In this document: piece by piece, positions 9,342 through 56,948 of the stretch
Layout: each line of letters starts with the position of its first letter
Numbering within the stretch: the stretch's first letter is position 1
Assembly (NCBI GenBank): GCA_045598385.1
Contig: JAZLLY010000016.1
Location: 210,000 to 273,999, forward strand
Reading direction: 5' to 3'
DNA from: Eubacteriales bacterium
GTDB lineage: Bacteria; Bacillota; Clostridia; Oscillospirales; CAG-272
DNA: 64,000 nucleotides
Position numbers and translations under genes: made by a program
Notes under the pieces: model-generated
Seen by the model: the letters and a program-made list of their open reading frames with translations, nothing else
Databases searched by the model: none
Told to the model about the DNA's origin: nothing

Positions 9342-9344
9342 CAA

Positions 9345-38470: not shown

Positions 38471-38478
38471 TTTGCAGA

Positions 38479-41487: not shown

Positions 41488-41532
41488 ATGTTTCTCCTTT
41501 GGCTTTCGCCGTCGTCTTATTTTGTCCACTTA

Positions 41533-41707
41533 TTGTGAAAATAGGTGAACAATAATACGATTTTATCATATCACGCGCGCGGAAAATTGTCAATGATAAT
41601 TTTATTTTACGCTAATCCAAATATATTTTTAGAAAAATGCTTCCTTTACGTCCTTTTTTTCGTTTATCCCGCGAAAAATGCCCGTTTTTGTTCACCTATT
41701 TTCACAA
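41533..41707. promoter_or_regulatory. Invertible-promoter-like element (inverton candidate), promoter currently facing the LRR lipoprotein gene (ON)
   Basis: Perfect 20-bp inverted repeats: TTGTGAAAATAGGTGAACAA (41533-41552) and TTGTTCACCTATTTTCACAA (41688-41707). They flank 135 bp. The insert carries, on the minus strand, TTGACA (41593-41588), a 17-nt spacer and TGaTATGAT (-10 at 41570-41565). Confidence 0.65.
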
Positions 41708-41750
41708 CAGATGAACATTTCCGGGGCGGTTTTTTAGATCCCGGGAAGCA

Positions 41751-41790
41751 AAAAGGGAAAAGAACGGACGTTCTCTTCCCTTTAATTTTT
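41751..41790. terminator. Terminator insulating the 41.5-kb switch from upstream nfnAB transcription
   Basis: GGGAAAAGAAC-ggac-GTTCTCTTCCC with A/T runs on both sides. On the minus strand it is followed by TTTTTGC. Confidence 0.65.
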
Positions 41791-41820
41791 GTATTGTTTT
41801 TTTACAATTTCCGCCATCGC

Positions 41821-41947
41821 CGCCTCGCTCTGCGAGCGAACGATGCGTTTCGCACACGAAACGCATCTCATAACTTTGCGGCAGCGCCGCAAATCATAAC
41901 TGTGCCGTAGGTACACCATAACTTGCCCGAAGGGCAATCATAACTGA
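41821..41947. repeat. CATAACT-spaced hairpin array (same orientation as 38262-38335)
   Basis: Starts with CGCTC-tgc-GAGCG and ATGCGTTTCG-caca-CGAAACGCAT. Then CATAACT precedes each of TTGCGG-cagc-GCCGCAA, GTGCC-gta-GGTAC and TGCCC-gaa-GGGCA. Confidence 0.8.
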
Positions 41948-41979
41948 TAAGAGCCGGGGAAAGTCCGGCTCTTTGGTCT

Positions 41980-42047
41980 GCGCAAAAAGCGCACGTTTTC
42001 AAACGCAAAAAGCGCACGTTTTCAAACGCAATAAGCGCGCGTTTTAC
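41980..42047. repeat. 23-bp tandem direct repeat x3 abutting the nfnB-like stop codon
   Basis: GCGCAAAAAGCGCACGTTTTCAA / ACGCAAAAAGCGCACGTTTTCAA / ACGCAATAAGCGCGCGTTTTAC. Confidence 0.8.
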
Positions 42048-43453
42048 TTTAAGAACTCATTGATCGCCTTTGCAGCCACCTTCCCCGCTCCCATCGCGGA
42101 GATGACAGTCGCGGCGCCCGTCACGGCGTCGCCGCCGGCGTAAACGCCGTCTTTGGTGGTTTTTCCGGTCTCTTCTTCTACGATGATACCGCCGTGACGG
42201 TTTACGTCAAGCCCTGCGGTCGTGGATTTGATCAGCGGGTTCGGGGACGTGCCGATCGCGATAATGACGGTATCGGCGTCCAGCACGAATTCACTACCCT
42301 CAACGGGAACGGGACGGCGGCGTCCGCGCTCGTCCGGCTCGCCGAGTTCCATACGGATACAGCGAAGACCGACGACACATCCGTTCATCGGATCGCGGGG
42401 ATCGTCCTTATTCTCGTAGCCGAGGACTTCGGTCGGATTGTTCAGAAGCAGGAATCTGACGCCCTCCTCCATCGCGTGTTCGACCTCCTCTTTTCTCGCG
42501 GGGAGTTCCTCCATGGAACGGCGATAAACGATCGACACCGATTCGGCACCGAGGCGAAGCGCCGTTCTCGCGGCGTCCATCGCGACGTTTCCGCCTCCGA
42601 CGACCACGACGTTCCCGCCTTTTTTGATCGGGGTTTCGGCATCGTCTTTATACGCGCCCATGAGGTTGCTTCTCGTCAGAAATTCGTTGGCGGAATACAC
42701 GCCTTTCAGACTTTCTCCGGGGATATTCATGAAGTTCGGAAGTCCGGCGCCGGAGCCGATGAACACGGCTTCATAACCCATGCCGAAGAGTTCGTCGATC
42801 GTCAGCGTTTTTCCGATGATCATATTCGTGGCAATTTCCACGCCGAGTTTTTCGAGATTTTCGACTTCTTTCGCGACGATCGCTTTCGGAAGACGAAACT
42901 CGGGGATGCCGTAAACGAGAACGCCGCCGGCTTTGTGAAGTGCCTCAAAGACCGTGACGCTGTGCCCTGCTCTGGCGAGATCGCCGGCGCAGGTAAGTCC
43001 GGAGGGACCGGAGCCGATCACGGCAACTTTATGTCCCGTTTTTTCGGGGAGCGTAACGCTCGACGTATCGTGAGAATTATGGTAATCGGCGACGAAACGT
43101 TCAAGACGTCCGATGCCGACGGGCTCGCCCTTGATCCCTCTGACGCAACGGGATTCGCATTGTGTTTCCTGCGGGCAGACGCGTCCGCAGACTGCGGGGA
43201 GCGACGAGGACTGTAAAATGACGCGGTAAGCACCCTCAAAATCGCACTCTTTGATTTTTGCGATGAATTCGGGAATACGGATATTGACGGGGCAACCGCC
43301 GACACAAGGCATATTCTTGCAGGACAGGCAGCGGAGCGCTTCGTCAACCGCCGTCGCCTCATCGTAACCGATAGCGACTTCCGAGAAATTGCGGGCGCGG
43401 ACCTTCGGATCCTGCGTCGGCATCGGATTCTTTTTGAGACTCATATTCGGCAT
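42044..43453 (-). CDS. NADPH-dependent glutamate synthase small-subunit-like oxidoreductase (NfnB/GltD family)
   Basis: 469 aa. N-terminal Fe-S Cys clusters (CLSCKNMPC..GCP; CGRVCPQETQCESRC) and two Rossmann motifs (VAVIGSGPSGL; VVVVGGGNVAMD). Confidence 0.85.
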   Translation of the reverse strand: MPNMSLKKNPMPTQDPKVRARNFSEVAIGYDEATAVDEALRCLSCKNMPCVGGCPVNIRIPEFIAKIKECDFEGAYRVILQSSSLPAVCGRVCPQETQCESRCVRGIKGEPVGIGRLERFVADYHNSHDTSSVTLPEKTGHKVAVIGSGPSGLTCAGDLARAGHSVTVFEALHKAGGVLVYGIPEFRLPKAIVAKEVENLEKLGVEIATNMIIGKTLTIDELFGMGYEAVFIGSGAGLPNFMNIPGESLKGVYSANEFLTRSNLMGAYKDDAETPIKKGGNVVVVGGGNVAMDAARTALRLGAESVSIVYRRSMEELPARKEEVEHAMEEGVRFLLLNNPTEVLGYENKDDPRDPMNGCVVGLRCIRMELGEPDERGRRRPVPVEGSEFVLDADTVIIAIGTSPNPLIKSTTAGLDVNRHGGIIVEEETGKTTKDGVYAGGDAVTGAATVISAMGAGKVAAKAINEFLK

Positions 43454-43454
43454 A

Positions 43455-44306
43455 TCAGTTTTCTCCTTTCAGGAGGTTGCAGACGTGTTCCCTCTTTTCG
43501 CTCTCAAACGCGCGGTACATCGTGCCGCGCCGCATGGCTTCGTCAAAATCCACTTCGTAGCCGTTGAAATCGGGACCGTCCACGCAGGCGAAACGGGTGA
43601 CGCGCTGTCCGTCTTTGATGAGCGTCAGACGGCAACCGCCGCACATTCCGGTTCCGTCGATCATGATCGGGTTCATCGAGACCGTCACCGGGATCCCGTA
43701 GGGGCGGACGGCACCGACGACGAATTTCATCATAATCAGAGGACCGATGGTGATGACTTCATCGAAAGATTCACCCGCCGAAAGCATTTCGTTGATGGGG
43801 ACGCAGACGTTCCCTTTCGTACCGTAAGAACCGTCGTCCGTCATGACGAAAAGGCGGTCGGACGCCGCTCTGAACGCGTCCTCGAGAATCAGAAGATCAC
43901 GGTTGCGGAAGCCGATGACCGAGGTCACTTCGGCACCCGATTTTTTCAGTTTTTCCGCGATGGGAAGCGCGATGGCGCAACCGACACCGCCGCCGACGAT
44001 CAGAACTTTTTTCAGTCCCTGCAGTTTTGTCGGAACGCCGAGAGGTCCGGCAAAATCCGGGATCGTGTCGCCGACGTTTTTCGCGCCGAGCAGCATCGTG
44101 GTCGCACCGACGAGCTGGAAGATGATCCTGACGGTCCCTCTCTCCCTGTCGTAACCGGCGACGGTCAGGGGAATGCGTTCTCCGTCCTCCGACACGCGCA
44201 GAATAACGAACTGTCCGGGCTCGGCTTTTGCCGCCACGAACGGCGCTTCGATATCCATCAGCGTCACGGTGGGATTCAGTATTTCTTTGTTGACTATCCT
44301 ATACAT
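43455..44306 (-). CDS. Ferredoxin-NADP reductase-like FAD/NAD-binding subunit (NfnA-like)
   Basis: 283 aa. The C-terminal [2Fe-2S] motif DGTGMCGGCR is present. It lies adjacent to the NfnB-like gene. The internal Met at 44306 follows GAGGAC. Confidence 0.8.
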   Translation of the reverse strand: MYRIVNKEILNPTVTLMDIEAPFVAAKAEPGQFVILRVSEDGERIPLTVAGYDRERGTVRIIFQLVGATTMLLGAKNVGDTIPDFAGPLGVPTKLQGLKKVLIVGGGVGCAIALPIAEKLKKSGAEVTSVIGFRNRDLLILEDAFRAASDRLFVMTDDGSYGTKGNVCVPINEMLSAGESFDEVITIGPLIMMKFVVGAVRPYGIPVTVSMNPIMIDGTGMCGGCRLTLIKDGQRVTRFACVDGPDFNGYEVDFDEAMRRGTMYRAFESEKREHVCNLLKGEN

Positions 44307-44392
44307 AATCGTCCTCGCGCGAAGTTTTTTACTATTATATAATATCAAAATGAAAAACGCAAGTCTTCCCGTAAGAAAACTTGCGTTTTTTG

Positions 44393-44989
44393 TCACATCC
44401 TGTATTCGGGATTGAAAGCGTAATAATTTTTACTGTCGAGGTCTTCGGTCGTCTTACGAAGGACCTCCCCGAACCGCTGGTAATGCACGATCTCGCGCTG
44501 ACGCAAAAAGCGGATGACGTCGGTGACGTCGGGATCATCCGACAACCGGAGAATGTTGTCGTAGGTGACTCTCGCTTTCTGCTCTGCCGCCAGATCTTCG
44601 TTGAGATCGGCGACGGGGTCGCCTTTGCAGGCGATCGACGCAGTGGTAAAGGGCAGTCCTGCCGCCGCCGTGGGATAAACGCCGGTCGTATGATCGACGA
44701 AATATTTGTCAAATCCGCCGGCGGTGATCTCTTCCGGCGTCAGATTTCTCGTCAACTGATAGAGGATGGCGCCGATCATTTCACAATGCCCGAGTTCCTC
44801 CGAGCCGATGTCGGTGAGAGTCCCGATCGCCGTCGCGTTCGGCATTCCGTACCGCTGATTGAGATAGCGCGTCGCGGCGCCCATTTCACCGTCGGGACCG
44901 CCGAGCTGGGATACGATCAGACTCGCGAGCCGCGCCGACGGTCTTTTGATATTGACGGGATATTGCAGTTTTTTCTCGTAGATCCACAT
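44393..44989 (-). CDS. cotJC: Spore coat protein CotJC (manganese catalase family)
   Basis: Starts MWIYEKKLQYPV and contains GGPDGEMGAATRYLNQRY and EELGHCEMI. Confidence 0.9.
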   Translation of the reverse strand: MWIYEKKLQYPVNIKRPSARLASLIVSQLGGPDGEMGAATRYLNQRYGMPNATAIGTLTDIGSEELGHCEMIGAILYQLTRNLTPEEITAGGFDKYFVDHTTGVYPTAAAGLPFTTASIACKGDPVADLNEDLAAEQKARVTYDNILRLSDDPDVTDVIRFLRQREIVHYQRFGEVLRKTTEDLDSKNYYAFNPEYRM

Positions 44990-44990
44990 A

Positions 44991-45254
44991 TTACCGTCCG
45001 TCCTTTCCCTCGGAATCCGTCTGCCAGGGCCAGGGCATATCGCAGAAGCTGAAGCGTCCGCCGCTGACGGCATCGGCGGTCAGAGGACCGTATTTGCCCT
45101 CGTATTCCTCCATCGCCTCGCGGAGTTCTTCGCGGTAGCGGTAAAATGTCTCGAGCGCTTCTCTGTCGTTCTCGTGGGTATCAAGGAAGAGTTCGACTTC
45201 GTCTTTCGCGAAAGAGAGTTCCTGGATCTTCCTTAAAAGTTCTTTACGGTTCAT
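44991..45254 (-). CDS. cotJB: Spore coat protein CotJB
   Basis: 87 aa. LLRKIQELSFAKDEVELFLDTH is typical of CotJB. It sits between the cotJA-like gene and cotJC. Confidence 0.8.
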   Translation of the reverse strand: MNRKELLRKIQELSFAKDEVELFLDTHENDREALETFYRYREELREAMEEYEGKYGPLTADAVSGGRFSFCDMPWPWQTDSEGKDGR

Positions 45255-45463
45255 CGGCTTTTCCCTCCCAAAACGAGGGGTTTGTCGAGTTTTTCAAAAA
45301 GAGTCCCGCGCATAAGACCAACCGCCGGGGTATAAAGATCCGAAAATCTCTGATCGGGGGCGTAAACCATCGCGAGCTGGACTTCTCCGCTCTCACTTAC
45401 CGCTTCCGGCAAGACTTCCTTCGGCAGATCCCGCGTCGGGTATCCGTTCATATTTTTTTCCAT
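45251..45463 (-). CDS. cotJA: Spore coat-associated protein CotJA
   Basis: 70 aa. It has a LAMVYAPDQRF...GTLF motif and is first in the cotJ operon. Confidence 0.7.
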   Translation of the reverse strand: MEKNMNGYPTRDLPKEVLPEAVSESGEVQLAMVYAPDQRFSDLYTPAVGLMRGTLFEKLDKPLVLGGKSR

Positions 45464-45533
45464 GTTGTCTTTCCTTTGTGGGGGGAAACCCCTCTATCAG
45501 TATATAAAAAAAGCCGTTTTCGGTTAAGAATGG

Positions 45534-45972
45534 GACTGTTAAAAAAGTGCAGACCGAAAAAGAAAAAATGACTGTTATACCGTTTTTTCCGCTTTCTTCT
45601 GTAATACAAGGTTGAAATCCTGACGGATTTCATCGGTTTTGATTTGATTTTCCTTTTTCTACCGTCGAAAGACGCCTCTGTCGTACGCTTGTACGCCGAC
45701 GTGTCGCCTTTCGGCGCTTCTGCCTCTTTTTTATCCAGCCCCATCAGACTGTTAAAAAAGTGCAGACCGAAAAAGGAAAAATGACTGTTATACCGTTTTT
45801 TTCCGCTTTCTTCTGTAATAAATGGTTGAAATCCTGACGGATTTCTCCGGTTTTGATTTGTATTTCCTTTTTCTACCGTCGAAAGACGCCTCTGTCGTAC
45901 GCTTGTACGCCGACGTGTCGCCTTTCGGCGCTTCTGCCACTTTTTTATCCAGCCCCAAATGCTGTTAAAAAA
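45534..45972. repeat. Non-coding 213-bp tandem direct repeat (two full copies plus the start of a third)
   Basis: Copies begin GACTGTTAAAAAAGTGCAGACCG at 45534 and 45747. GCTGTTAAAAAA recurs at 45961. I count about ten differences between copies by manual alignment. Confidence 0.85.
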
Positions 45973-45992
45973 AGACGCCGGTTTTCGGCGTC
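45966..45992 (-). terminator. Terminator of the NAD(P)H-hydrate dehydratase gene
   Basis: Minus strand: GACGCCG-aaaac-CGGCGTC followed by TTTTTTT. Confidence 0.8.
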
Positions 45993-46001
45993 CGTGAAGC
46001 A

Positions 46002-46859
46002 TTATTCCGTTGTCAGCGCGAGTATCTCTTTCGCGATCGCCGCGGGGAGATCCGAGGCGGTCACACCGTACGGAGAAAAGACTTTTCCGAGCGTTTCCCC
46101 GGCTTTTCCGTGAAGATAAGCCCCGAGGGCGGCGGCGATCTGCGGTTCTACCCCGGAGGCGCAAAGCCCGGCGATCAGCCCGGCGAGAACGTCGCCGCTC
46201 CCCGCTTTGGCAAGTGAGGTATCGCCCGTCGTATTCAGAAAAGTCCGGTCGCCGTCGGTGACGACGGTCCCGTTTCCTTTGAGAAGAACGACGCACCGCG
46301 CGCTTTTCGCAAACGAAACGGCGGCACCGACTCTGTCGGCTTCGATTGTTTTGACCGGAAGTCCCGACAACCGCGAAAATTCCCCGGGATGCGGGGTGAT
46401 CACGACGGGGCGGGACGCGCCCGAAAGGAGCGGGACGGCTTCGCCTGTGATCGCGCTCAACGCGTCGGCGTCAAGAATGAGCGGTGAGCCGGTGGTTTTC
46501 AACAATTCTATGACCGCGCTTTTCGTCTTCTCGTCGTTTCCGCATCCGGGGCCGAAAAGCGTGGCGTCGGTCTGCGAGGAAAGTGCCGCAAGTTCCTTTT
46601 CGTCCTCTTTGCCCGCGCCTCTGTAAACGATCTCGGGAAAACGGGAAAGGACGGCGGCTTTTACTTCCGGGGCCGCGGAAAAAATCACGTATCCGACGCC
46701 GCTGCGAAGTGCCGCTTCGGCAGAAAGACAGGCGGCACCCGGATAGGCGGGACTCCCCGCCGCGATCAGCACTTTTCCGAACGTGCCTTTGTTCGCGTTT
46801 TTCGGGCGCGGCGGCAGGGATTCTTTGGCTTTTCTTTCGTCAAAATACTCGGTTTTCAA
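46002..46859 (-). CDS. nnrD: ADP-dependent NAD(P)H-hydrate dehydratase
   Basis: 285 aa carbohydrate-kinase fold with the C-terminal GSGDVLAG motif. Confidence 0.85.
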   Translation of the reverse strand: MKTEYFDERKAKESLPPRPKNANKGTFGKVLIAAGSPAYPGAACLSAEAALRSGVGYVIFSAAPEVKAAVLSRFPEIVYRGAGKEDEKELAALSSQTDATLFGPGCGNDEKTKSAVIELLKTTGSPLILDADALSAITGEAVPLLSGASRPVVITPHPGEFSRLSGLPVKTIEADRVGAAVSFAKSARCVVLLKGNGTVVTDGDRTFLNTTGDTSLAKAGSGDVLAGLIAGLCASGVEPQIAAALGAYLHGKAGETLGKVFSPYGVTASDLPAAIAKEILALTTE

Positions 46860-46873
46860 AGGATGCCTCCATA

Positions 46874-47431
46874 TCAGGGATGCTTTTCGACAAGATAAAA
46901 ATACGGCGAGGTCGGTGAGTTGAGAATATGAAACTCCGACGCGCAGATCTGAAAACGGCTGAGCGTCCTGAAATACTCACGGAGCATATCGCCCTCGAGC
47001 GCGCCCTCTTCGTGCCCGGGATAAACGGCGATAATGAGCACGCCGTCGGGCGCGAGAAGACCGATCGCCGCTTCCACCGCCGGCATCGTCGTTTTCCGCA
47101 TCGTGGTGAGTTGTTTTTTTCCGCTCCCCGGCAGATAACCGAGATTGAAGATCCCGGCTTTTATCGGTCCGTCAACGAATTCACCGACGCGGTGATGGGA
47201 GGCACAGATCAAAGTATAATTGCGCGGGGCACCTTCTGCTTCCAGGTGTTTTCTCGTCGAATCGAGAGCGGCGCCCTGAATGTCAAACGCGAAGACTCTG
47301 CCGTTTTCCCCGACGGTCTTCGACAGAAAACAGGTATCGTTTCCGTTTCCCATCGTGAAATCCACGGCGGTATCGCCGGGGGCGAGATGTTCGAGAATAA
47401 AATATTTGTGCAATCCGCAAAGATCGACCAT
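46874..47431 (-). CDS. Class I SAM-dependent methyltransferase, YtqB/MnmM-like
   Basis: 185 aa. Contains VDFTMGNGNDT and GYLPGSGKK, as in YtqB-type tRNA methyltransferases. Confidence 0.7.
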   Translation of the reverse strand: MVDLCGLHKYFILEHLAPGDTAVDFTMGNGNDTCFLSKTVGENGRVFAFDIQGAALDSTRKHLEAEGAPRNYTLICASHHRVGEFVDGPIKAGIFNLGYLPGSGKKQLTTMRKTTMPAVEAAIGLLAPDGVLIIAVYPGHEEGALEGDMLREYFRTLSRFQICASEFHILNSPTSPYFYLVEKHP

Positions 47432-47440
47432 AGACGCTCC

Positions 47441-49159
47441 TTATTTTGCCGGTGTGACGAGGCAGGAATAGTTGGTATGATAAATGACGAAGCCGGGCTT
47501 TGCACCGGCGGGCTTTTTGATATTTTTCACGCGGGTGTAATCGACCGTCACCGACGCGCCGTTCGCCTGCGAATGTTTGGCGGCGAGTGCCGCCGCCTCG
47601 GTATAATCGGCGTCGGACGGCTCTTCTCCGTGTGTGCGGAGGATCACGTGAGAGCCCGGCATATCCTTGACGTGAAACCAGATATCGCCCTTTTCGGCGA
47701 TCTTGAACGTCAACTGATCGTTCTGCGTGTTGTTGCGTCCGATCAGAACCTCGAAGCCACCGCTCGTTTTTGTAACGATTGGTTTGCATTTTACCGCTTT
47801 TTGCGGTTGATAGCCCCGCATACGGGAGGCATAACCGCTCCGATAAAGTTCGTCGCGGATGTCAAAAAGGTCCTGCTCCGTTTCCGCACGGGACAGAAAA
47901 TCACGCACCGAGGCAAGATAAGCAAGTTCCTTTTCCCATTCGGCGATCCGCTCGGTCAGTACCGCTCTCGCGGTTTTGCACTTGTTGTACTGCTTATACA
48001 TTTTCTGGGCGTTGGCGGACGGGGAAAGACGCGCGTCGAGCGGGACTTCGACCTCTTTTGCGTTCTCGCTGTAATAATCGGCGGTCACAAAGGACGTCAT
48101 GCCGCGGGAAAGCCGGTACAGGTTCGCCGTGATGAGATCCCCGCGCTTTTTGTACTCTTCGCCCATTTCGCTGTCGAGGAGCGCCTGCTTCTGGATCGCG
48201 AGTTTCTTCTCGGTGCGCGCCTCGGCGTTTCCGAGCAGTTGCAAAAGGTCGTGGCCGCGCTGACGGATGCGCTCGACGCGGTCTTTTTCCTCAAAATAAG
48301 CGTCGAAAAGCGCGGCGAAATCGGGGTAGGAAACGGCGGTATAACCGAAGCACGAAAGCGGCATATAACAATAATCTTTCGGGTGGGAATCCGCGTCGAG
48401 AAACGCGGTCGGCTCATACTCTTCTTTGATCAGTTTTTCCTGCCACGCGGAAAAAACGTCGTACAAACGTTCGGGCCGGATATCGCAAAGCGGCACGTCG
48501 CATTTCCCTGCGGTGCGGTGACAGATCTCGTGCGCGACCTGCGTCGCGATACCGCCGTAAACCGCCGTGATGAACTTCTCGACGGTGCGCCCCTCGCCAA
48601 ACGACGAAAGCGCGTCAAAGAAAAACCCGCGGTCGATCACGAGCGGCGACGCTTTTCCCTGCTCTGCCGGCGGGGTATAGCGAAGCCCCGGGAGAACCTG
48701 TCTGACGGTACTGTCGGAAAAGTCGATCAGTTTCAGAGCGGAGATGATCTTTTCTTCCCCGTCGGTCAGAATGAGATTGGCGTATTTACCCATAATTTCG
48801 CAGTAAAGGATCTTCGTCCCGACGTAGCCGAGTTCGTCGGTCGCCGAAAAAACGAAACGGGCGATGCGGTCAAAGCCGACCTGTGATACTTCCGTGATCC
48901 TTGCTCCCGAAAGATGCTTCCGCAAAAGCATACAGAACATCGGCGGGACCTTCGGATTGTCCTTTTGCAGTCTTGATAGCTGAAGGCGCGGCGCGTTCGG
49001 ACCTACGTTGAAAAGGAGACGCGCGGAGGACCTGCCGGAATGGATGCAAAGATCCACTTCGTCTTTTGCGGGCATCAAAACTTTTTCGACGCGTGCGTCG
49101 GAAAAATCGCGTTTGATCTCCGTCAGCACGGCGCGCATCATACAAGCGTCAAATGCCAT
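47441..49159 (-). CDS. rqcH: Ribosome quality control protein RqcH (NFACT / fibronectin-binding protein A family)
   Basis: 572 aa. N-terminal NFACT-N (MAFDACMMRAVLTEI...), a coiled-coil middle, and C-terminal NFACT-R (WFHVKDMPGSHVIL). Confidence 0.85.
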   Translation of the reverse strand: MAFDACMMRAVLTEIKRDFSDARVEKVLMPAKDEVDLCIHSGRSSARLLFNVGPNAPRLQLSRLQKDNPKVPPMFCMLLRKHLSGARITEVSQVGFDRIARFVFSATDELGYVGTKILYCEIMGKYANLILTDGEEKIISALKLIDFSDSTVRQVLPGLRYTPPAEQGKASPLVIDRGFFFDALSSFGEGRTVEKFITAVYGGIATQVAHEICHRTAGKCDVPLCDIRPERLYDVFSAWQEKLIKEEYEPTAFLDADSHPKDYCYMPLSCFGYTAVSYPDFAALFDAYFEEKDRVERIRQRGHDLLQLLGNAEARTEKKLAIQKQALLDSEMGEEYKKRGDLITANLYRLSRGMTSFVTADYYSENAKEVEVPLDARLSPSANAQKMYKQYNKCKTARAVLTERIAEWEKELAYLASVRDFLSRAETEQDLFDIRDELYRSGYASRMRGYQPQKAVKCKPIVTKTSGGFEVLIGRNNTQNDQLTFKIAEKGDIWFHVKDMPGSHVILRTHGEEPSDADYTEAAALAAKHSQANGASVTVDYTRVKNIKKPAGAKPGFVIYHTNYSCLVTPAK

Positions 49160-49177
49160 ATAATACCTACTGTTTTG

Positions 49178-50353
49178 TCATGTTTTGTTGTCATTTTCTC
49201 TTAAAAACGACAGAAGAGACGACTTTTCGTTCTTCACTTTCCCATCCATGACGGCAAAGAGAAGTTTTTCGAGCGCATCGCCGAGCGCGGTGCCGTCAAA
49301 GCCGGCGGACAAAAGATCCCCGCCCCGCAGGGCAAGATCGGAAAGTTTCGTCGGGGGATTCTCTGCCATGAGAGCGTCGAAAGCCGAAAGGCGGGATCCG
49401 CCGTCCGAAAGATCCGACAGAAGAAGAAAATCGCGGGCTCTTTCTTTTCCGAGGGAAAAGCAAAGGCGCAGATACCCGCCGCGCGAAAGTTCGCCTACGT
49501 CCTCCGTTCCGAGGATCGCAACGCCGTCGTCGAGAAACTTTTTCTCGGTTTTTAGGCGTCGGCACATCGCGGCAAAATGCGCCGCGCGGTCTTTGTCGTT
49601 CCAGAGGAGTTCGAGTGTACGGTGTTTATCGTCCTCCGTGCCGAACGCTTCGGGCACGGTAAGGGGGACACCCGGGAAAAGAAACGCGAATACTTGAGAG
49701 TATTCCCGCAGAACGGCGGCGGGGTTCTTCCCCGCCCGCGCTTTTCGCCACTCTGCATAGATCCGCTCCGCCGATACGTCGGCGAGAAGTTCGTAACACG
49801 AAAGCACGGCGGCTTTCGTCTTTTCTTCGACCGAAAAGCCGAGCACCGAAGCAAAACGCAGGGCGCGGAGGATACGCAGGGCGTCCTCGCGGAAGCGGAC
49901 GGACGGCTCGCCGACACAGCGGATCCGCCGTTTTTCGATATCTTCCCTGCCTCCGAAAAGGTCGGTGATCCCAAAAGTCGGATGATAGCACATCGCGTTT
50001 ACGGTAAAATCGCGGCGGGAGAGGTCGGACGAAAGATCACGGGTAAACGTCACGTTTTCGGGATGACGGTGATCGGCATAATCCCCGTCCGTCCGATAGG
50101 TCGTGACCTCGACGGGTTCGCCTTCAACGATGACAGTCAGAGTACCGTGCTTCCGTCCCGTTTCGATCACCTTGAAATCCCCGAAAACGCGGAGCATTTC
50201 CTCCGGCGTCGCCGAGGTGGTCATGTCAAAATCGTGAGGAGAAAGGCCGAGCAGAAAATCGCGGACGGAACCGCCGACGACGTCGGCACGGAATCCGGCA
50301 TTTTTCAGGGCTTCAAAAACGGCGCGGGCGCCGTTTGAAAGACGCATATCCAT
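49178..50353 (-). CDS. cca: CCA tRNA nucleotidyltransferase
   Basis: The nucleotidyltransferase motif GGSVRDFLLG...DFDMTT is present. The ATG at 50353 follows AAAGGAGAGAGG. The track start at 50374 is a TTG. Confidence 0.8.
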   Translation of the reverse strand: MDMRLSNGARAVFEALKNAGFRADVVGGSVRDFLLGLSPHDFDMTTSATPEEMLRVFGDFKVIETGRKHGTLTVIVEGEPVEVTTYRTDGDYADHRHPENVTFTRDLSSDLSRRDFTVNAMCYHPTFGITDLFGGREDIEKRRIRCVGEPSVRFREDALRILRALRFASVLGFSVEEKTKAAVLSCYELLADVSAERIYAEWRKARAGKNPAAVLREYSQVFAFLFPGVPLTVPEAFGTEDDKHRTLELLWNDKDRAAHFAAMCRRLKTEKKFLDDGVAILGTEDVGELSRGGYLRLCFSLGKERARDFLLLSDLSDGGSRLSAFDALMAENPPTKLSDLALRGGDLLSAGFDGTALGDALEKLLFAVMDGKVKNEKSSLLSFLRENDNKT

Positions 50354-50481
50354 ATCCTCTCTCCTTTCTGTCAAAATATTTTATCATATATCCTCTCTCT
50401 TGTCAACGAAACGCCGTGATTTTCATTGACACGGAAGACCTTTTCTGCTATACTGGGAACGATGTTATTATGAGGTGCTAT

Positions 50482-51384
50482 ATGAAACTTTCATCGACAA
50501 CGTCTTCGCTTTTCGCCACGTTCGGCGAAGAAGACGGCATCAAGGTCGCAAAGGAGGTCGGTTTCGACGCTCTCGACCTCAATCTCATCCTGCCGACGCC
50601 GCCGCTCTACGAGAAAGACGGCTTTTTGAAATACGCCGACCGTCTCCGCAACGCCGCGGAAAAGGCGGGGATGCCGTTCAACCAGGCGCACGCACCGTTC
50701 CCGACCATGAAATTCAAAAACGGCGACACCGCAAAGCCGGACGAGGAATATAACGCGATCACGAGAAAACGCATCGAGGACGCGATCCTTTGCACCGGGC
50801 GGATCGGTGCCGAACAGATCGTCATCCATCCCGTCGATTTTCTCGGCAGAGCCGACGCCAAAGAGAGAAACATCGAGATCTACCGCTCCTTTGCCCCGAT
50901 CGCCGAGGAAGCGGGCGTGAAGATCGCTCTTGAAAATATGTGGGGCTACCGCCCCGGCACGCGGCACATCGTCCCGAACGTTTGCAGCACCGGCGAAGAA
51001 CTCGGTGCCTATTACGACGCGCTCCCGTCCTCGCGCTTTTCGGTCTGTCTTGATCTCGGGCACTCGGAACTGGTGAACGAAACGGCGGAAGCCGCGATCC
51101 TCGCGCTCGGTCACGACCGTCTGCACGCGCTCCACGTCCACGACAACGACAGTATGACCGACGGGCACACGATCCCCTATTTCGGCGTCATGAACTGGGA
51201 GAGGATCACGAAAGCCCTCGCCGATATCGACTACGGCGGCGACTTCACCTTTGAGGTCAACGGCGCCGCGTTTCAGCGGCTCGAAAAAGAGCCGAAAACG
51301 GCGTATTTCGCCTACGCCCTCCTGGCGCAAACAGGAAAGACGCTCATTGAAAAAATAGAAAAATACAAAGAAAAAAGACAATAA
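50482..51384 (+). CDS. Sugar phosphate isomerase/epimerase (xylose isomerase-like TIM barrel)
   Basis: 300 aa. The motifs IVIHP, IALENM and HVHDN are typical of the AP endonuclease 2/xylose isomerase-like fold. The ATG at 50482 follows GAGGTG. Confidence 0.8.
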   Translation: MKLSSTTSSLFATFGEEDGIKVAKEVGFDALDLNLILPTPPLYEKDGFLKYADRLRNAAEKAGMPFNQAHAPFPTMKFKNGDTAKPDEEYNAITRKRIEDAILCTGRIGAEQIVIHPVDFLGRADAKERNIEIYRSFAPIAEEAGVKIALENMWGYRPGTRHIVPNVCSTGEELGAYYDALPSSRFSVCLDLGHSELVNETAEAAILALGHDRLHALHVHDNDSMTDGHTIPYFGVMNWERITKALADIDYGGDFTFEVNGAAFQRLEKEPKTAYFAYALLAQTGKTLIEKIEKYKEKRQ

Positions 51385-51402
51385 TCGACAGAAAAAATAT
51401 AA
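51236..51402. repeat. Direct repeat copy A (3' end of the isomerase gene plus 18 nt downstream)
   Basis: The 167 bp match 56680-56846 with 4 mismatches by manual alignment. Confidence 0.9.
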
Positions 51403-51438
51403 CGATCCTCCCGCAGAACGGGGGGATCGTTATTTTTT
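51392..51438. terminator. Bidirectional terminator
   Basis: ACGATCCTCC-cgcagaacg-GGGGGATCGT, flanked by an A-run upstream and a T-run downstream. Confidence 0.7.
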
Positions 51439-51514
51439 GTTTCCGTTCTTCCCTGATCGGAAAGAACGGAAACCAAAAGAGTTAAGGTTTTGTGATTATC
51501 GAGAGGAAAACTGA

Positions 51515-54500
51515 TTATCCGATCTCGGAAACGGTCCATACGCCGTTATCCGTATCTTCAACGGACTGATAATTTTCATCGAAAAGGTAAGAAGTCAGGT
51601 CGTCGGTATTCGGGCCTGCCGGGTTGAAGCCGTGGAAGGTACCGCCTTTGACTTTGATGCTTGCGTTTGCTTCATCGCCATTCTTGATATTCAGTACCCA
51701 ATACCGACCGTTGTATTTCGCATCACTGCTGAACTCACCGCCTTCGATCACGATCTGTCCGACTTTTAGCGCGTAGATCGTCGAATTTCCTTTTCCTCCG
51801 TTATCAGCGCCGACGGTGAAGGTTCCACCTTTAATCGTAACGGTACCGTTCTCTACGCTAACTGCTTTGCTGTCATATCCGTTCTTTCCTGTAAACGTTC
51901 CGCCGGAGATCGTAATCTTCATCTTCTCATTGAACGTCGTGGGATTCACCGTGTCGATGACCGTCAAGGCATAAATGCCGGTGAACGAGCCACCGCTGAT
52001 CGTTACATTGATCTCACAAGCGGTTGTATGCTGTGAAATAGCAAGGGCGGCGCCTTTAACGGTCGTTCCGTTTCCGTTTGCAGTTGCGCTGTATTCCGTA
52101 GCATTGGAAACAAGGGATCCGCCGGTGATATTCACCGTTCCCGCTCTGACTTCCACGGGAGTGGGCGCCGTGATGGTTCCACCGGAAATATTCAGCGTTC
52201 CGTCCTGCGGATGATAAATACCAGTTCCCGCAGAAGTGATGGAACCGCCGGTCACGTTGATCATCGTTCCCCAATACGCTTCCGAACCGTTACCGACGAT
52301 ACCGTAAGCCGCCGTCGTCGTAATGGTGGCTGCCGTCGTCAGAGTCGGTTTTGTATCCGTAACGATGGAAATGGCATCGACGACGGAATCAATTATGAAC
52401 GTATCTTCCAACGTCACGTTACCCTGCTTCACATAAATCGCCGCATAAGCGTCAGAATTCGTGACTTTCAGCGTGCCGTTTCTTATGGTTAACGTCATAT
52501 TTCTTCCAACGCAAATGGCGCCAACGTCACCGGATTTTGTCGAAGTGATCGTATGACCGTTCAAATCCAAAATAACATTCTTTACCAATACAGTGAATGT
52601 AATTTGAGAATTGACGGTAACGTCATCTAACAGTTTCCAAGTACCGTCTGAAGCCATAGAAGTGATGGAATCTTTATAAGTTGTCGTTTCGCCATTGGTA
52701 ACCGAAGCAATCGCTTTTTTGACCGTAAGCGTTCCATTGGCAAAAGTAATGTCATAGTTTGCCGCTTCCAGTCCGGAGACCGTAATGACGTAAGTTCCGG
52801 CAACATTCTGTGTTTTGTCATAATCGCCAAAACCATAAACGGCATCTCCGGTCAGAACGGTTTTGGTTTCACCGTTGACAAATCCCGTTGCGGTATAGGC
52901 GCCGCTCGGGGTGTTTCCGGCAACAATGGTTTTTTTGGATGCCGCTACGGTGAGAGGTGCTTTTGCTATGACAAAATCAAAGGTCAAGTCGTCGGAAGAT
53001 CCGTCGTCCCATGCATAATTGGTTTTGTCTTTGAGGGCAACGGTAATGACACTCGTGCCCGCACCGGTCTTCGTTAAATCACCGGTAATGGTATAAAGGA
53101 GGTCATTTGCCGCAAGCGTATAGGTCTGTTCCAGACCGGTGTACGTAAACTCCGTTGTGTCTGCGTTCGGTTTAGCGACTTTGATCGGGGTTTCAGCTTC
53201 TTCCTTCACGCCACAACCTTCGCGCTGACAAACGCGAGACTTTTTACCATGTGCCTCGTAGGTTGCATCAACGTCGATCGTCCAGTCACCAAAATCATGA
53301 CCGAGTTTCGATCCGGTATCGACTACGGTGTCGGGTTCGGTACAATTGTCGTTGTCGCACTTTGCAGTCTTGGTACCGTCATTCAAACAGGTCGCGTCAT
53401 TGTTAGATTCGTAATTTGTGAAAGAGTGTCCGAGTTTCGAGCCGGTATTGACTACGGTGTCGGTTGCGGTACAATTGTCGCACGTTGCAGTCTTGGTACC
53501 GTCAGCCGTGCAGGTCGCGTTACCGTCGGAGACATAAGTCGTGAACGAGTGATCAAGCGCGGGGATTTCTTCCGTTTCTTCATATCCGCAGGCACAAACG
53601 TGTTTTTTAAGTCCTTTGGTCGTGCAGGTCGCGGGAGTCACGGGTTCCCATGCGCTAAAGGTATGCTCGGCTTTACCGGCGAGCACGCCATGTCCGCAGG
53701 TATCGGCGTGCCAGTGGTAGGTCTCGTTACACGTCCAATCTTCCGAATAGGTGTGGTCGGTCTTTTCGGTTTCGCGCGTCTCTTCATATCCGCAGACGAT
53801 GCAAGAACGTTCTTGCAGTCCTTTAGTCGAGCAGGTCGCTTCTTTTCCTTCCACGTCAGTCCACTTGCCGAACATGTGATTGCCAACATCGGCAAACACG
53901 TAATCACCGCAGGTCGCGGCACGCCAGTGCTGCTCTTCGTTGGACGACCATTCTTCGTCGTAGGTATGAGCACCCTCTTTTACTTCGCCGGACGCGAAGG
54001 TCTCGGTGCCTTTCGCTCCGCAGACGCAGGAGTAGTAATACTGCGCTTTCGCGGAGCAGGTCGCTTCGCTCGCCAGATAAACTTCGGTTGCTACTTCTTG
54101 ATCGTAGGTATGATCGAGCACCGGGATCACAGTCACATCGGTGACTTCGTCACAACCCTCACGCAGACAATGGTGAGATTTCGAGCCCGCGGTCTTGCAG
54201 GTTGCTTCGGTATCAATCGTCCAAATGTCAGAGTAGTTGTGATCGAGTGCGTCGATATCCTGTGTTTCTTCGTATCCGCAGACGGCGCACACATGTTTTT
54301 CGCTGCCCTTTTCGGTGCAGTTGGGTTCATTTACGGTCTCCCAATCGCCGTATTCGTGTCCGAGTTCGTCGATCACAGTCACATCGGTGACTTCATCACA
54401 ACCGTCGCGCAGACAATGGCGGGATTTCGAGCCCGCGGTCGTGCAGGTCGCGGGAAGATCAATCTTGAATTCCGACGAGAAGTTATGATCAAGCGCGTCG

Positions 54501-56404
54501 ATATCGCGCGTTTCTTGATATCCGCAGACGACACAAGCACGGACCTGCGTTCCTTTGTCCTCACAGGTTGCGGGAGTCTCGGTAGTCCAAAGCCCGAACG
54601 TATGCCCGTCTTTATCGGCGACCCCGCCATGTCCGCAGATAGCGGCGTGATAATGCTCGTTTTCGTTATAAGTCCACTCTTCCGAATAGGTGTGGTCGGT
54701 CTTTTCGGTTTTGCGCGTCTCTTCATATCCGCAGACGATGCAAGAACGTTTTTGCTCTCCCTCATTCGAGCAGGTCGCTTCTTTTCCTTCCACGTCAGTC
54801 CACTTGCTGAACGTGTGAGCGGATTCACCCGAGATCTCCGTTACATGCTCACAGGAAGCGTCGTGCCAGTGGTGGGTCTCGTTATACGTCCAATCTTCCG
54901 AATAGGTGTGGTCGGTCTTTTCGGTTTCGCGCGTTTCTTTATATCCGCAGACGCGGCAAGAACGTTCTTGCAGTCCTTTAGTCGAGCAGGTCGCTTCTTT
55001 TCCTTCCACGTCAGTCCACAAACCGAAAATATGCTCGGTTTTGCTCGTGATAAGTTCGATATGTCCGCAGGTCGCGGCGTGCCAATGCTCGGTATCGTTA
55101 CACGTCCATTCTTCTGAAAATGCATGGTCGATCATTTCGACTTCGCGCGTTTCTTCATACCCGCAGACGGTGCAAAGACGGTGTTCAACACCTTTCTTTG
55201 AGCAGGTCGGAGCCGTGACGGTCGTCCAGTCGCCGAAGGTGTGGACACCTTTATCCACGAAAAGATCGGTATGCTCGCAGGTAGCGGCGTGCCAATGCTC
55301 GGTTTTGCTGGACGACCACGTTTCGGCATACGTATGGTCGATCATATCCATATCGCGGGTTTCTTCGTATCCGCAGGCGGTGCAAAGACGGTGCTCGAGC
55401 CCTTTGCTTGCGCAAGTCGGAGCCGTCACAGTCTCCCATTCGCCGAACGTATGTTCCGCTTTATCCGCGAAAAGATCGGTATGCTCGCAGGTAGCGGCGT
55501 GCCAATGCTCGGTCTCATCATACGTCCAGGTTTCGGCGTACGTATGGTCGATCATATCCATTTCGCGGGTTTTTTCATATCCGCAAACCGTGCAAAAACT
55601 ATGCTCGACGCCTTTGCTTCCGCAAGTCGGAGCCGTCACAGTCTCCCACGTTTCGAAAATGTGTTCCGCTTTATCCGCGATGAGGTAGGAATGTTCGCAA
55701 GTGGCAAAGCGCAGATGCTCGGTTTCACTGTACATCCACGTATCGGAGTACGTATGCGGAAGCATTTCGATCTCACGCGTTCCTTCGTATCCGCAAACGG
55801 TGCAATAACTGTGTTCAAGTCCTTTGCTTCCGCAAGTCGGTTCGGTCACAGTCTCCCATTCGCCGAACGTATGTTCCTCTTTATCCGCGAAAAGATCGGT
55901 ATGCCCGCAGGTCGCAGCGTGCCAATGCTCGGTTTCGCTGGACGACCACGTTTTGGCGTAAGTGTGCGCCAATTTACTCGTCTGTCTGGTTTCTTCCAAT
56001 CCGCAGACGGTACAAACGCGGTGTTCAAGACCTTTTTCTCCGCAGGTCGCGGCCGTCACGGTTTCCCATGCACCGAAAGTGTGCACGTTATGCTCCGGGA
56101 CAAATTTCGCATATACCTTTATGCTTTTTGTGAAAGTTTCGTCGGCGAGAGAATCTGCTGAAAAGGGCGATTCCCACGTACCTTCGTCAAGGTACCAACC
56201 GTCAAAAGTATAGCCGTCTTTGACGGGATCCGCCATAATTTCGATTGTTTCATTTCCGCTTGTCCTGATGATATCGCGGACTTCTCCGTCCACGACAAAT
56301 TCGATCGCGTATTCCACTTTTCCGCACGCGGCAAAAGCAAAAATCGCAATCAGACAAGACAAAGTCAGCGCAAGGATCTTTCCAATGTTCTTTTTCATGC
56401 TCAA
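51515..56404 (-). CDS. Giant surface lipoprotein: Flg_new-type repeat, about 12-13 Cys/His-rich modules, MBG-like domain and C-terminal beta-helix-like repeats
   Basis: 1629 aa. Lipobox IFAFAAC. One YAIEFVVDG...GYTFDGWY repeat. Modules of about 57-70 aa follow the pattern H-TFG-W..V..ATC..KG.....C.VCGYEETR....DHTY...W....T.HWH..TC.H. It also contains an APLTV...NYDITF..GTLTV segment. GGAGG lies 8 nt before the ATG. Confidence 0.85.
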   Translation of the reverse strand: MSMKKNIGKILALTLSCLIAIFAFAACGKVEYAIEFVVDGEVRDIIRTSGNETIEIMADPVKDGYTFDGWYLDEGTWESPFSADSLADETFTKSIKVYAKFVPEHNVHTFGAWETVTAATCGEKGLEHRVCTVCGLEETRQTSKLAHTYAKTWSSSETEHWHAATCGHTDLFADKEEHTFGEWETVTEPTCGSKGLEHSYCTVCGYEGTREIEMLPHTYSDTWMYSETEHLRFATCEHSYLIADKAEHIFETWETVTAPTCGSKGVEHSFCTVCGYEKTREMDMIDHTYAETWTYDETEHWHAATCEHTDLFADKAEHTFGEWETVTAPTCASKGLEHRLCTACGYEETRDMDMIDHTYAETWSSSKTEHWHAATCEHTDLFVDKGVHTFGDWTTVTAPTCSKKGVEHRLCTVCGYEETREVEMIDHAFSEEWTCNDTEHWHAATCGHIELITSKTEHIFGLWTDVEGKEATCSTKGLQERSCRVCGYKETRETEKTDHTYSEDWTYNETHHWHDASCEHVTEISGESAHTFSKWTDVEGKEATCSNEGEQKRSCIVCGYEETRKTEKTDHTYSEEWTYNENEHYHAAICGHGGVADKDGHTFGLWTTETPATCEDKGTQVRACVVCGYQETRDIDALDHNFSSEFKIDLPATCTTAGSKSRHCLRDGCDEVTDVTVIDELGHEYGDWETVNEPNCTEKGSEKHVCAVCGYEETQDIDALDHNYSDIWTIDTEATCKTAGSKSHHCLREGCDEVTDVTVIPVLDHTYDQEVATEVYLASEATCSAKAQYYYSCVCGAKGTETFASGEVKEGAHTYDEEWSSNEEQHWRAATCGDYVFADVGNHMFGKWTDVEGKEATCSTKGLQERSCIVCGYEETRETEKTDHTYSEDWTCNETYHWHADTCGHGVLAGKAEHTFSAWEPVTPATCTTKGLKKHVCACGYEETEEIPALDHSFTTYVSDGNATCTADGTKTATCDNCTATDTVVNTGSKLGHSFTNYESNNDATCLNDGTKTAKCDNDNCTEPDTVVDTGSKLGHDFGDWTIDVDATYEAHGKKSRVCQREGCGVKEEAETPIKVAKPNADTTEFTYTGLEQTYTLAANDLLYTITGDLTKTGAGTSVITVALKDKTNYAWDDGSSDDLTFDFVIAKAPLTVAASKKTIVAGNTPSGAYTATGFVNGETKTVLTGDAVYGFGDYDKTQNVAGTYVITVSGLEAANYDITFANGTLTVKKAIASVTNGETTTYKDSITSMASDGTWKLLDDVTVNSQITFTVLVKNVILDLNGHTITSTKSGDVGAICVGRNMTLTIRNGTLKVTNSDAYAAIYVKQGNVTLEDTFIIDSVVDAISIVTDTKPTLTTAATITTTAAYGIVGNGSEAYWGTMINVTGGSITSAGTGIYHPQDGTLNISGGTITAPTPVEVRAGTVNITGGSLVSNATEYSATANGNGTTVKGAALAISQHTTACEINVTISGGSFTGIYALTVIDTVNPTTFNEKMKITISGGTFTGKNGYDSKAVSVENGTVTIKGGTFTVGADNGGKGNSTIYALKVGQIVIEGGEFSSDAKYNGRYWVLNIKNGDEANASIKVKGGTFHGFNPAGPNTDDLTSYLFDENYQSVEDTDNGVWTVSEIG

Positions 56405-56445
56405 AACCTCCGACCTTATTTTTTATCAAATTAAGTTCATATACT

Positions 56446-56611
56446 ATGGTAATAGATGAACAAACAAGTCGCATTAACGCCAAAATGGGCGTATCATATA
56501 AGCGAAAAACATAGCGGAAGAAAAAAATTACTCTTCCTATCATATTTATATTGACAAGTTTTTTCGATTATGATATCATGTTTATATCATAACGTTCATC
56601 TATTACCATAA
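56446..56611. promoter_or_regulatory. Invertible-promoter-like element (inverton candidate), promoter currently facing away from the giant lipoprotein gene (OFF)
   Basis: Perfect 17-bp inverted repeats: TATGGTAATAGATGAAC (56446-56462) and GTTCATCTATTACCATA (56595-56611). They flank 132 bp. The insert carries, on the plus strand, TTGACA (56552-56557), a 17-nt spacer and TGaTATCAT (-10 at 56575-56580). Confidence 0.65.
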
Positions 56612-56641
56612 TAGGCGGATTTTTTGCATAGTCGAAAATAC

Positions 56642-56675
56642 AAAAGGAAACAGGAAAAAACTGTTTCCTTTTTTT
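56642..56675. terminator. Bidirectional terminator on the distal side of the 56.5-kb switch
   Basis: AAAGGAAACAG-gaaaaaa-CTGTTTCCTTT followed by TTTT. On the minus strand the hairpin is also followed by TTTTGTATTTT. Confidence 0.7.
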
Positions 56676-56679
56676 GAGC

Positions 56680-56828
56680 GCGGCGACTTCACCTTTGAGG
56701 TCAACGGCGCCGCGTTCCAGCGGCTCGAAAAAGAGGCGAAAACGGCGTATTTCGCCTACGCCCTCCCGGCGCAAACAGGAAAGACGCTCATCGAAAAAAT
56801 AGAAAAATACAAAGAAAAAAGACAATAA
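56680..56828 (+). pseudogene. Orphan 3' fragment (last ~49 codons) of the sugar phosphate isomerase gene
   Basis: It encodes GDFTFEVNGAAFQRLEKEAKTAYFAYALPAQTGKTLIEKIEKYKEKRQ-stop, nearly identical to the end of 50482-51384. There is no upstream coding sequence or start codon. Confidence 0.85.
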
Positions 56829-56846
56829 TCGACAGAAAAAATATAA
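56680..56846. repeat. Direct repeat copy B
   Basis: Matches 51236-51402 (167 bp, 4 mismatches). Confidence 0.9.
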
Positions 56847-56873
56847 GGGAACAGAAAAATCTGTTCCCTTTTT
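56835..56873. terminator. Terminator hairpin following repeat copy B
   Basis: AGGGAACAG-aaaaat-CTGTTCCCT followed by TTTT. Confidence 0.65.
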
Positions 56874-56910
56874 GGATTGAATCTGATTTTTTCAAATGCC
56901 GCTCGGCAAA

Positions 56911-56938
56911 AACAACTAATAGTTAATAGTTATTAGTT
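56911..56938 (-). terminator. AT-only palindrome, probable tsf terminator
   Basis: CAACTAATA-gttaatagt-TATTAGTTG. On the minus strand it is followed by TTTTTG. Confidence 0.5.
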
Positions 56939-56948
56939 GCGCCTGCGC

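Follow-up and report, generated by a model that had tools for sequence, protein, structure and literature searches.

Invertible promoters that are flipped by a distant master recombinase are known from RecV in Clostridioides difficile and Mpi in Bacteroides fragilis (PMC5903667), and surveys list many Clostridia invertons, some groups of which have been linked to tyrosine recombinases (PMC11892184). Here, we describe two putative elements of this kind, referred to as switch 1 and switch 2, in a 64,000-nucleotide stretch of contig JAZLLY010000016.1 from a Eubacteriales bacterium (assembly GCA_045598385.1); this whole stretch is termed the window. Each element consists of a promoter-bearing segment between inverted 27-bp sites and lies immediately upstream of a gene encoding a large lipoprotein, and the two, 15 kb apart, have a common site consensus. 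We consider it probable, at roughly 0.78, that these are two independent invertons that would switch two large surface lipoproteins ON and OFF by phase variation. The original prediction for this DNA, made by a reader of the letters alone, had proposed that a trans-acting invertase controls a regulon of interchangeable surface-protein cassettes. That interpretation is partly supported by the analysis reported here, and its idea of a trans-acting master invertase is an established paradigm, as exemplified by RecV and Mpi, rather than a new one (PMC5903667).

Organization of the two switches

Switch 1 (41524-41716, about 190 bp) precedes target gene 1 (38479-41487, minus strand), which encodes a lipoprotein of 1002 residues with the lipobox LFAFSAC and six BspA-type LRR_5 stretches. 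Its arms (41523-41555 and 41685-41717; 33 nt, 85% complementary) form the longest short-range inverted repeat in the window and contain both 27-bp sites. The gene-proximal site (41524-41550) reads GTCCACTTAT-TGTGAAA-ATAGGTGAAC, with an outer arm that fits the consensus of the site family at 8/10 positions and an inner arm that fits it perfectly, and the distal site (41690-41716), read on the minus strand, is GTTCATCTGT-TGTGAAA-ATAGGTGAAC; the 7-bp centre is common to both sites. The invertible segment between them (41551-41689, minus strand) is A+T-rich and 139 bp long, and it contains a predicted minus-strand promoter (41565-41593) of the form TTGACA-17-(TG)-TATGAT, which agrees with the consensus at 11 of 12 positions, carries a TG ahead of the -10 box, and leaves 14 nt between that box and the site. 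As this promoter faces lipoprotein gene 1, switch 1 is ON in this assembly; exactly 36 nt separate the outer edge of the gene-proximal site from the ATG of this gene. On the distal side, a hairpin at 41752-41783 with A- and T-runs on both sides resembles a bidirectional terminator. The 89-nt stretch around it (41712-41800) folds with -27.6 kcal/mol (z = -4.3 versus shuffles), and we infer that the hairpin would end the OFF-state transcript and bar read-through from the upstream gltD-like operon.

Switch 2 (56435-56620, also about 190 bp) precedes target gene 2 (51515-56398, minus strand), which encodes a lipoprotein of 1627 residues with the lipobox IFAFAAC followed by Flg_new, MBG_2, and ~70-residue Cys-rich repeats. 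Its arms (56442-56461 and 56594-56613; 20 nt, 95% complementary) form the fourth longest short-range inverted repeat in the window. The gene-proximal site (56435-56461) reads GTTCATATAC-TATGGTA-ATAGATGAAC, and its outer edge is again exactly 36 nt from the ATG of the target gene, while the distal site (56594-56620) has the minus-strand reading ATCCGCCTAT-TATGGTA-ATAGATGAAC, in which the centre is the same as that of its partner and the outer arm, ATCCGCCTAT, is degenerate, with 7/10 positions retained. The 132-bp invertible segment (56462-56593, plus strand) contains a predicted plus-strand promoter, TTGACA-17-(TG)-TATCAT (56551-56579), with the same 11/12 agreement, TG ahead of the -10 box, and 14-nt distance from box to site. 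This promoter is directed at a hairpin (56642-56672), with lipoprotein gene 2 behind it, and switch 2 is thus OFF in this assembly. The hairpin (z = -3.5 to -3.7 versus shuffles, A- and T-runs on both sides) is a predicted bidirectional terminator that would receive the OFF-state transcript.

The sites of both switches are composed of 10-bp arms around an asymmetric 7-bp centre that is the same within a pair and differs between pairs (TGTGAAA in switch 1 versus TATGGTA in switch 2), and apart from the promoter, the interiors of the two segments are unrelated. The motif GTTCAYCTATT occurs exactly four times in the window, once per arm and at its inner edge, whereas the outer arms fit the consensus at 8, 9, 8, and 7 of 10 positions. 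The spaced dyad GTYCA-N17-TGAAC is found at three distinct places in the window versus 0.24 expected, a count that was reached in none of 100 shuffles. When the search was relaxed to allow up to one mismatch, the window yielded no additional switch, and with two mismatches the count was at chance level; an Rfam search at both switches gave no match.

Most of what had been read from the letters at these two elements was borne out. The inverted repeats and their shared core were recovered when the arms were computed, the three dyad sites exceeded the shuffles, with the third moved from 56436-56462 to 56435-56461, and the two TTGACA-17 promoters with an upstream TG, the bidirectional terminators on the distal sides, which fold better than shuffles, and the assignment of one switch as ON and the other as OFF, with which the promoter directions agree, all held. 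The insert lengths had been put at 135 and 132 bp; measured between the inner arms, they are 139 and 132 bp. Both targets had been described as lipoproteins with a nearly identical lipobox followed by Flg_new-type repeats, of which the lipoprotein character and the lipobox stand, while Flg_new is detectable in lipoprotein 2 only (residues 30-98, E = 1e-7, together with MBG_2 in Pfam). In lipoprotein 1, a Pfam scan gave no Flg_new match at E <= 0.01, and its YTVTW...FSGW repeats are of Flg_new style by eye only. The Cys-rich part of lipoprotein 2 (window positions 53200-56100) consists of at least seven tandem modules of ~70 residues, with a 210-nt period and CxxC-type motifs, which cumulatively give a weak match to the Ribosomal_L32p zinc-ribbon model.

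The site family in other Clostridia

Relatives of the window switches were sought with the pattern AATAGRTGAAC-N(118-148)-GTTCAYCTATT in one genome per species, with a metagenome scan as a second source. The genome scan returned 11 loci versus about 4 expected by chance, by a rough estimate of our own rather than a tool output. Seven of these, all in metagenome-assembled genomes (MAGs) of Clostridia (Oscillospiraceae, Christensenella, and unclassified Clostridia), have the full design, in that they also possess outer arms, centres that match, and a TTGACA promoter inside the segment, features that the scan pattern did not demand. The other four genome matches and most metagenome matches were set aside as long hairpins or as chance matches without outer arms. 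Two more switches, L016 and L024, came from the metagenome scan, which brings the number of switches beyond the window to nine. All 22 sites of the resulting 11 switches fit a 10-7-10 arrangement, GTTCAYCTAT, a 7-bp centre, and ATAGRTGAAC, and the consensus of the outer arms over the 22 sites is GTTCAYCTAT, though the search did not impose it. In all 11 switches, the partner sites have the same 7-bp centre, and the loci together display seven different ones (TGTGAAA, TATGGTA, TATCATA, TCACATA, TAGCATA, TACTATA, and CTGTCGA). Every segment carries a TTGAC-type promoter, with the -10 box 11-14 nt from one site in all 11 cases, and measures 119-139 bp between the inner arms. Apart from this promoter, the segment interiors do not align between most family members, which means that these are not copies of a single mobile sequence.

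The view that the two window switches belong to one family is thus upheld by the recurrence of the 27-bp grammar, the promoter position, and the segment size in the nine other Clostridia switches, and the notion of lipoprotein targets applies in the window but not across the family, as targets in the relatives include pilin-like N_methyl proteins, a giant MBG_2 protein, and a sigma-70-like gene. In the last case, the protein that a family switch controls is a small sigma-70 region-2 protein (L003 7126-7503 and L036 4435-4890), not one of the surface. The interiors of L003 (6752-6893) and L024 (856-996) also contain an extra half-site-like sequence, GTTCATTTAT and GTTCATCTAA, respectively, which the window switches do not have and which may be an accessory binding site. 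Two further pairs of switches occur in two MAGs, one pair in each, with the members on separate contigs: L002 with L010 and L005 with L011. Unlike the two window switches, each of these pairs has a common centre, TATCATA (L002/L010) and TAGCATA (L005/L011), and the members of a pair could in principle recombine with each other, inverting or deleting large chromosome segments. No viral contig contained the dyad. A text search of the literature for the motif returned only unrelated primers, with the supplementary sequence tables of PMC11892184 outside the comparison, and the recombination-site family seems to be undescribed.

Evidence for inversion is comparative rather than read-level and concerns these relatives rather than the window loci. 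Three independent contigs (L003, L036, and L038; L037 is the same contig as L003) have identical flanks and a promoter that faces away from the sigma-70-like gene. In L016, the segment is 98.9% identical to the L003 type but inverted, so that the promoter faces the sigma-70-like gene, and its flanks match those of the L003 type at 100% identity for 49 nt beyond the site on one side and at 80% for 606 nt on the other. As assembled, this relative's locus occurs in both orientations across samples, in three contigs versus one. A second case is provided by L005 and L011, which are paralogous pilin-like loci in one MAG with flanks 83% identical and segments 98% identical; relative to the flanks, the segments lie in opposite orientation, one ON and one OFF. 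The L010 locus has the same orientation in a second sample (L035). For the window species itself, an exact-protein look-up of three window proteins in other assemblies returned no record, and a search for conspecific contigs with a core protein encoded between the two switches reached no relative closer than 82% identity, in keeping with the rarity of this species in public data.

The recombinase question and alternative explanations

No recombinase open reading frame (ORF) had been seen in the 64 kb on first reading, and this finding was corroborated by every route taken. A codon-usage gene model places about 55 genes in the window, 40 ORFs were scanned against Pfam, and most of the remaining ORFs lie within the stretch syntenic with the nearest genome (L031), whose called genes have Pfam annotation. 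Neither the Pfam scans nor the L031 annotation revealed a tyrosine or serine recombinase among the window ORFs, which encode only housekeeping, transporter, surface, and small unknown proteins, and tblastn against the window, with a Hin sequence and three tyrosine recombinases as queries, produced nothing better than E = 0.6. With no recombinase within the 64 kb, any invertase therefore acts from a distance.

A likely sequence of events begins with such an enzyme, encoded outside the window, which would bind the arms, pair the two sites, exchange strands within the centre, and flip the segment. In the ON state, transcription from the sigma-70-type promoter would start just before the gene-proximal site and read through the site and the 36-nt leader into the lipoprotein gene, and in the OFF state, the promoter would fire into the bidirectional terminator just outside the distal site. 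The distal terminators would further shield the targets from the upstream housekeeping operons (gltD-like in one case and rpsB-tsf in the other), and the different centres would stop recombination between the switches, allowing each to flip independently. Simple tyrosine-recombinase sites, with dif, lox, and FRT as examples, are built from arms of ~10-13 bp around an asymmetric 6-8-bp centre that is matched between partners. The 10-7-10 layout with its pair-specific asymmetric centre therefore favours a tyrosine recombinase, most likely acting as a homodimer on each site, over a serine invertase of the Hin type.

Among the relatives, L010 has a gene encoding a tyrosine recombinase (PF00589, E = 9e-37) 1.5 kb from its switch, just beyond the pilin-like target gene. 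This protein is Xer-like, falls below the NCBIfam equivalog cut-offs for XerC (233 versus 335 bits) and XerD (215 versus 330 bits), and has XerD (1a0p, E = 1.5e-34) as its closest solved structure. Its orthologues are 60-100% identical across many Clostridia and always adjoin radA, an Amidase_3 gene, and a gene for a small membrane protein, with the order radA, Amidase_3, an unnamed gene, and recombinase kept in four other genome contexts; the L010 gene is thus a conserved core gene. It could be the master invertase, as a conserved enzyme would parallel the conserved arms, but it is a candidate only, and a single adjacency of this kind among seven genome loci could also arise by chance, at about 10% by our own estimate.

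Several observations weigh against the proposal that the window elements are working invertons of this type. The sole recombinase that adjoins a family member, that of L010, is a core gene without a general link to the sites, and where its orthologues occur in four other genome contexts (L025-L030 and L047-L056), no family site lies within 10 kb of them. In the relatives, the search pattern itself prescribed the inner arms, so the conservation of these arms does not count as independent support. In the closest public genome (GCA_002315715.1), which is only 82% identical in the core protein, both switch-plus-gene cassettes are absent. Finally, the outer arms of the window sites are the most degenerate in the family, at 7-9/10, and one or both switches could be slow or locked.

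This last point leads to the alternative that survives best, in which the elements are fossil switches, former invertons locked one ON and one OFF by arm decay or recombinase loss. In its favour, the window outer arms are poorer than those of most relatives, no recombinase is encoded within 64 kb, and the nearest genome is without the cassettes. The four inner arms and both centre pairs are nevertheless perfect and the promoters retain 11 of 12 positions, which would be unexpected after long neutral decay, and an OFF-locked ORF of 4.9 kb would be expected to decay, yet it is uninterrupted. We therefore regard fossil switches as unlikely.

A somewhat smaller chance is given to the idea that the invertons are real but are flipped by a serine recombinase of the Hin/Gin or Mpi type. 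A precedent exists in B. fragilis, where many dispersed promoter switches are served by the serine recombinase Mpi (PMC5903667), and with no recombinase of either class visible in the window, the class of the enzyme is only inferred. Against this, the site has an odd length of 27 bp, with the dyad axis on a base rather than on a central dinucleotide, the centre is variable over 5-7 bp, asymmetric, and pair-matched in 11/11 switches, which fits a 6-8-bp tyrosine overlap rather than a 2-bp serine crossover, and there is no conserved enhancer-like block inside the segments. The window switches do not display the hallmarks of Hin/Gin-type systems, namely 26-bp sites, a 2-bp crossover, an adjacent or internal recombinase, and a cis enhancer. 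The site size and symmetry had been called typical of invertase sites at the outset; the 27-bp dyad stands, while a Hin-type serine reading suits the 10-7-10 layout and its pair-specific centre poorly.

It is very improbable that the 27-bp palindromes are operators of a dimeric transcription factor that flank a fixed promoter, with no inversion. Palindromes with a 10-7-10 layout are also typical of operators for helix-turn-helix dimers, and one site lies just downstream of the -10 box, but the promoter of switch 2 has its only available gene behind it and a terminator ahead, the two sites of every pair carry matching asymmetric centres in inverted orientation, and the L003-type segment is found inverted between matching flanks. 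An equally low probability attaches to small non-autonomous elements resembling miniature inverted-repeat transposable elements with an outward promoter, in which orientation differences would reflect separate insertions: the length of about 190 bp, the terminal inverted repeats, and the status of both cassettes as insertions relative to the nearest genome suit such elements, but no target-site duplication flanks either window element, the interiors of the window copies and of most family members are unrelated, every copy keeps a set distance to the gene start downstream of it (36 nt for the two in the window), and there are only two copies in 64 kb, both at gene 5' ends, with the dyad absent from viral contigs.

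Cassette context and comparison with known systems

The nearest genome, L031, keeps the backbone of the window gene for gene at 72-80% nucleotide identity, in the order LexA, DUF4416, QueT, MecA, rpsB, tsf, AP_endonuc_2, CCA enzyme, NFACT, CotJ, gltD-like, M23, and TyrRS onward, and differs from the window at both switch positions, where both switch-plus-gene cassettes are missing. This comparison of aligned sequences demonstrates the insertion of the cassettes into a housekeeping backbone and confirms the earlier view of the switch-plus-gene units as cassettes. Cassette 1 (38057-42048, 3992 bp) occupies a position at which L031 has a 623-bp stretch with a shikimate-kinase-like gene, and it is bracketed by direct arrays of ATCATAACT-hairpin units at 38262-38337 and 41859-41946. 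In place of cassette 2 (51376-56948, 5573 bp), L031 has only 54 bp, between one aligned block that closes with the tsf stop and another that closes with the end of the AP_endonuc_2 gene. Around this cassette lies a direct repeat of 167 nt whose copies are 98% identical and which duplicates the 3' end of the AP_endonuc_2 gene: the left copy (51236-51402, plus strand) is the true 3' end of the gene plus 18 nt, and the right copy (56680-56846, plus strand) is a duplicated, truncated gene end. This repeat looks like the footprint of an insertion by recombination, and one idea is that the cassettes entered by homologous recombination at the repeats. Each cassette follows a housekeeping operon and shares its orientation, and the terminators between operons and cassettes probably insulate the phase-variable genes. 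The presence of such units also varies among relatives, as strains of the L003 lineage with a 92%-identical neighbouring RlmD (L039-L046) are without the switch cassette altogether.

The arrays beside cassette 1 consist of short hairpins with 3-5-nt loops joined by constant 9-mers (38262-38450 and 41859-42049). The 9-mer ATCATAACT is present on both sides of the cassette, with five of its six window copies in these arrays versus 0.32 expected, while a second 9-mer, TATGGAATC, occurs at 38350-38450 and a 23-nt tandem repeat, CGCAAAAAGCGCACGTTTTCAAA, is present in three copies at 41981-42049. Another family of hairpin arrays, GTCATACCGAGGGCG-loop-GCCCGAGTGTATCCC, with copies 91-97% identical, is found in L011 at 5547-6140 and 7106-7247. 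There, in an unrelated MAG, the arrays bracket a pilin-plus-switch cassette in direct orientation, the same architecture as around window cassette 1.

Taken further, these features suggest a scheme that we hold to be doubtful at this point, in which the P0001-family Xer-like recombinase beside radA would be the master invertase across several Clostridia families, the centres would serve as address codes that keep dozens of switches independent, and the units would be exchangeable cassettes that move into and out of housekeeping intergenic regions by recombination at flanking direct repeats.

Elsewhere in the window, a third large lipoprotein of 1389 residues with seven Big_3 domains is encoded between ATP-binding cassette transporter genes (21938-26107), and no switch or inverted-repeat pair is found upstream of its gene. 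A Gut-1 RNA (RF01706, 53.7 bits versus a gathering score of 50) at 9342-9420 adjoins tRNA-Trp, and a gene for a 23S rRNA intervening-sequence protein lies at 8133-8528. A protein of 1245 residues (12004-15741) has DUF4011, two helicase domains of superfamily 1 (AAA_11 and AAA_12), and, at its C terminus, an MTES_1575/DUF559 nuclease domain, and may be a helicase-nuclease of the defence type.

Surface proteins subject to phase variation shape the encounters of gut and environmental Clostridia with hosts, phages, and surfaces, and most well-understood invertons are from Bacteroidota or a few pathogens. The family described here offers a searchable grammar for orphan Clostridia switches, GTTCAYCTAT, 7 bp, and ATAGRTGAAC, in inverted pairs ~120-140 bp apart, one member of which has a promoter at a distance of 11-14 nt, and it carries the prediction that the enzyme is a tyrosine recombinase with a pair-specific overlap. 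The cassette-like insertion of switch and gene together into a backbone also hints at how such regulons grow.

Several characterized systems are informative in this regard. The fimS element of Escherichia coli (FimB/FimE) is likewise a promoter-bearing invertible element that gives ON/OFF control of a surface structure, and it is flipped by tyrosine recombinases, the enzyme class predicted here, with half-sites around short inverted repeats. Unlike the switches described here, which have no conserved internal sites, it has adjacent recombinases, a 314-bp segment, and a need for internal IHF/Lrp sites. Mpi and other Bacteroidota invertons also place invertible promoters before surface-structure genes, with a repeat consensus across many loci and a combinatorial mix of ON and OFF states (PMC5903667, PMC11892184), and the Mpi master recombinase is not adjacent to most of its switches, as we propose for the window. 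The differences are that Mpi is a serine enzyme, that the phylum, promoter type, and repeat motif are not the same, and that proteins are the targets here versus capsule operons there. Closer in phylogeny is Clostridia inverton group 139 of the hCom2 community (PMC11892184), which, as described, likewise comprises gut Clostridia invertons tied to tyrosine-type recombinases. Nearly all of its members have a recombinase within 5 kb, and two examples have ~205-230 bp between repeats of 13-25 nt, whereas the present family is almost always orphan, with 119-139 bp between inner arms.

The RecV switches (cwpV, flagellar, and others; PMC5903667) are similar in that they too are Clostridia elements with a short segment, imperfect inverted repeats, and surface or motility genes as targets. 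By description, to which this comparison is confined, several dispersed switches are served there by one tyrosine recombinase encoded elsewhere, as proposed for the window switches. Unlike in the RecV switches, the window segment itself carries the promoter, and its sites are full 10-7-10 palindromes with pair-specific centres. In C. difficile, cwpV is switched by way of a terminator that forms in its leader. In the layout of the sites, the nearest parallels are XerCD/dif (11-6-11), XerH/difH, Cre/loxP (13-8-13), and FLP/FRT, which likewise have inverted arms, of 10-11 bp, around an asymmetric 6-8-bp centre. At such simple tyrosine-recombinase sites, the centre must match between partners and sets directionality, and inverted orientation of the sites leads to inversion. 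The GTTCAYCTAT arms show no obvious resemblance to dif arms, and the predicted function here is promoter inversion rather than the dimer resolution of XerCD/dif. The general principle behind the window switches is thus already established, and what they add to it is detail rather than concept: a 10-7-10 site family, pair-specific centres, and a cassette organization.

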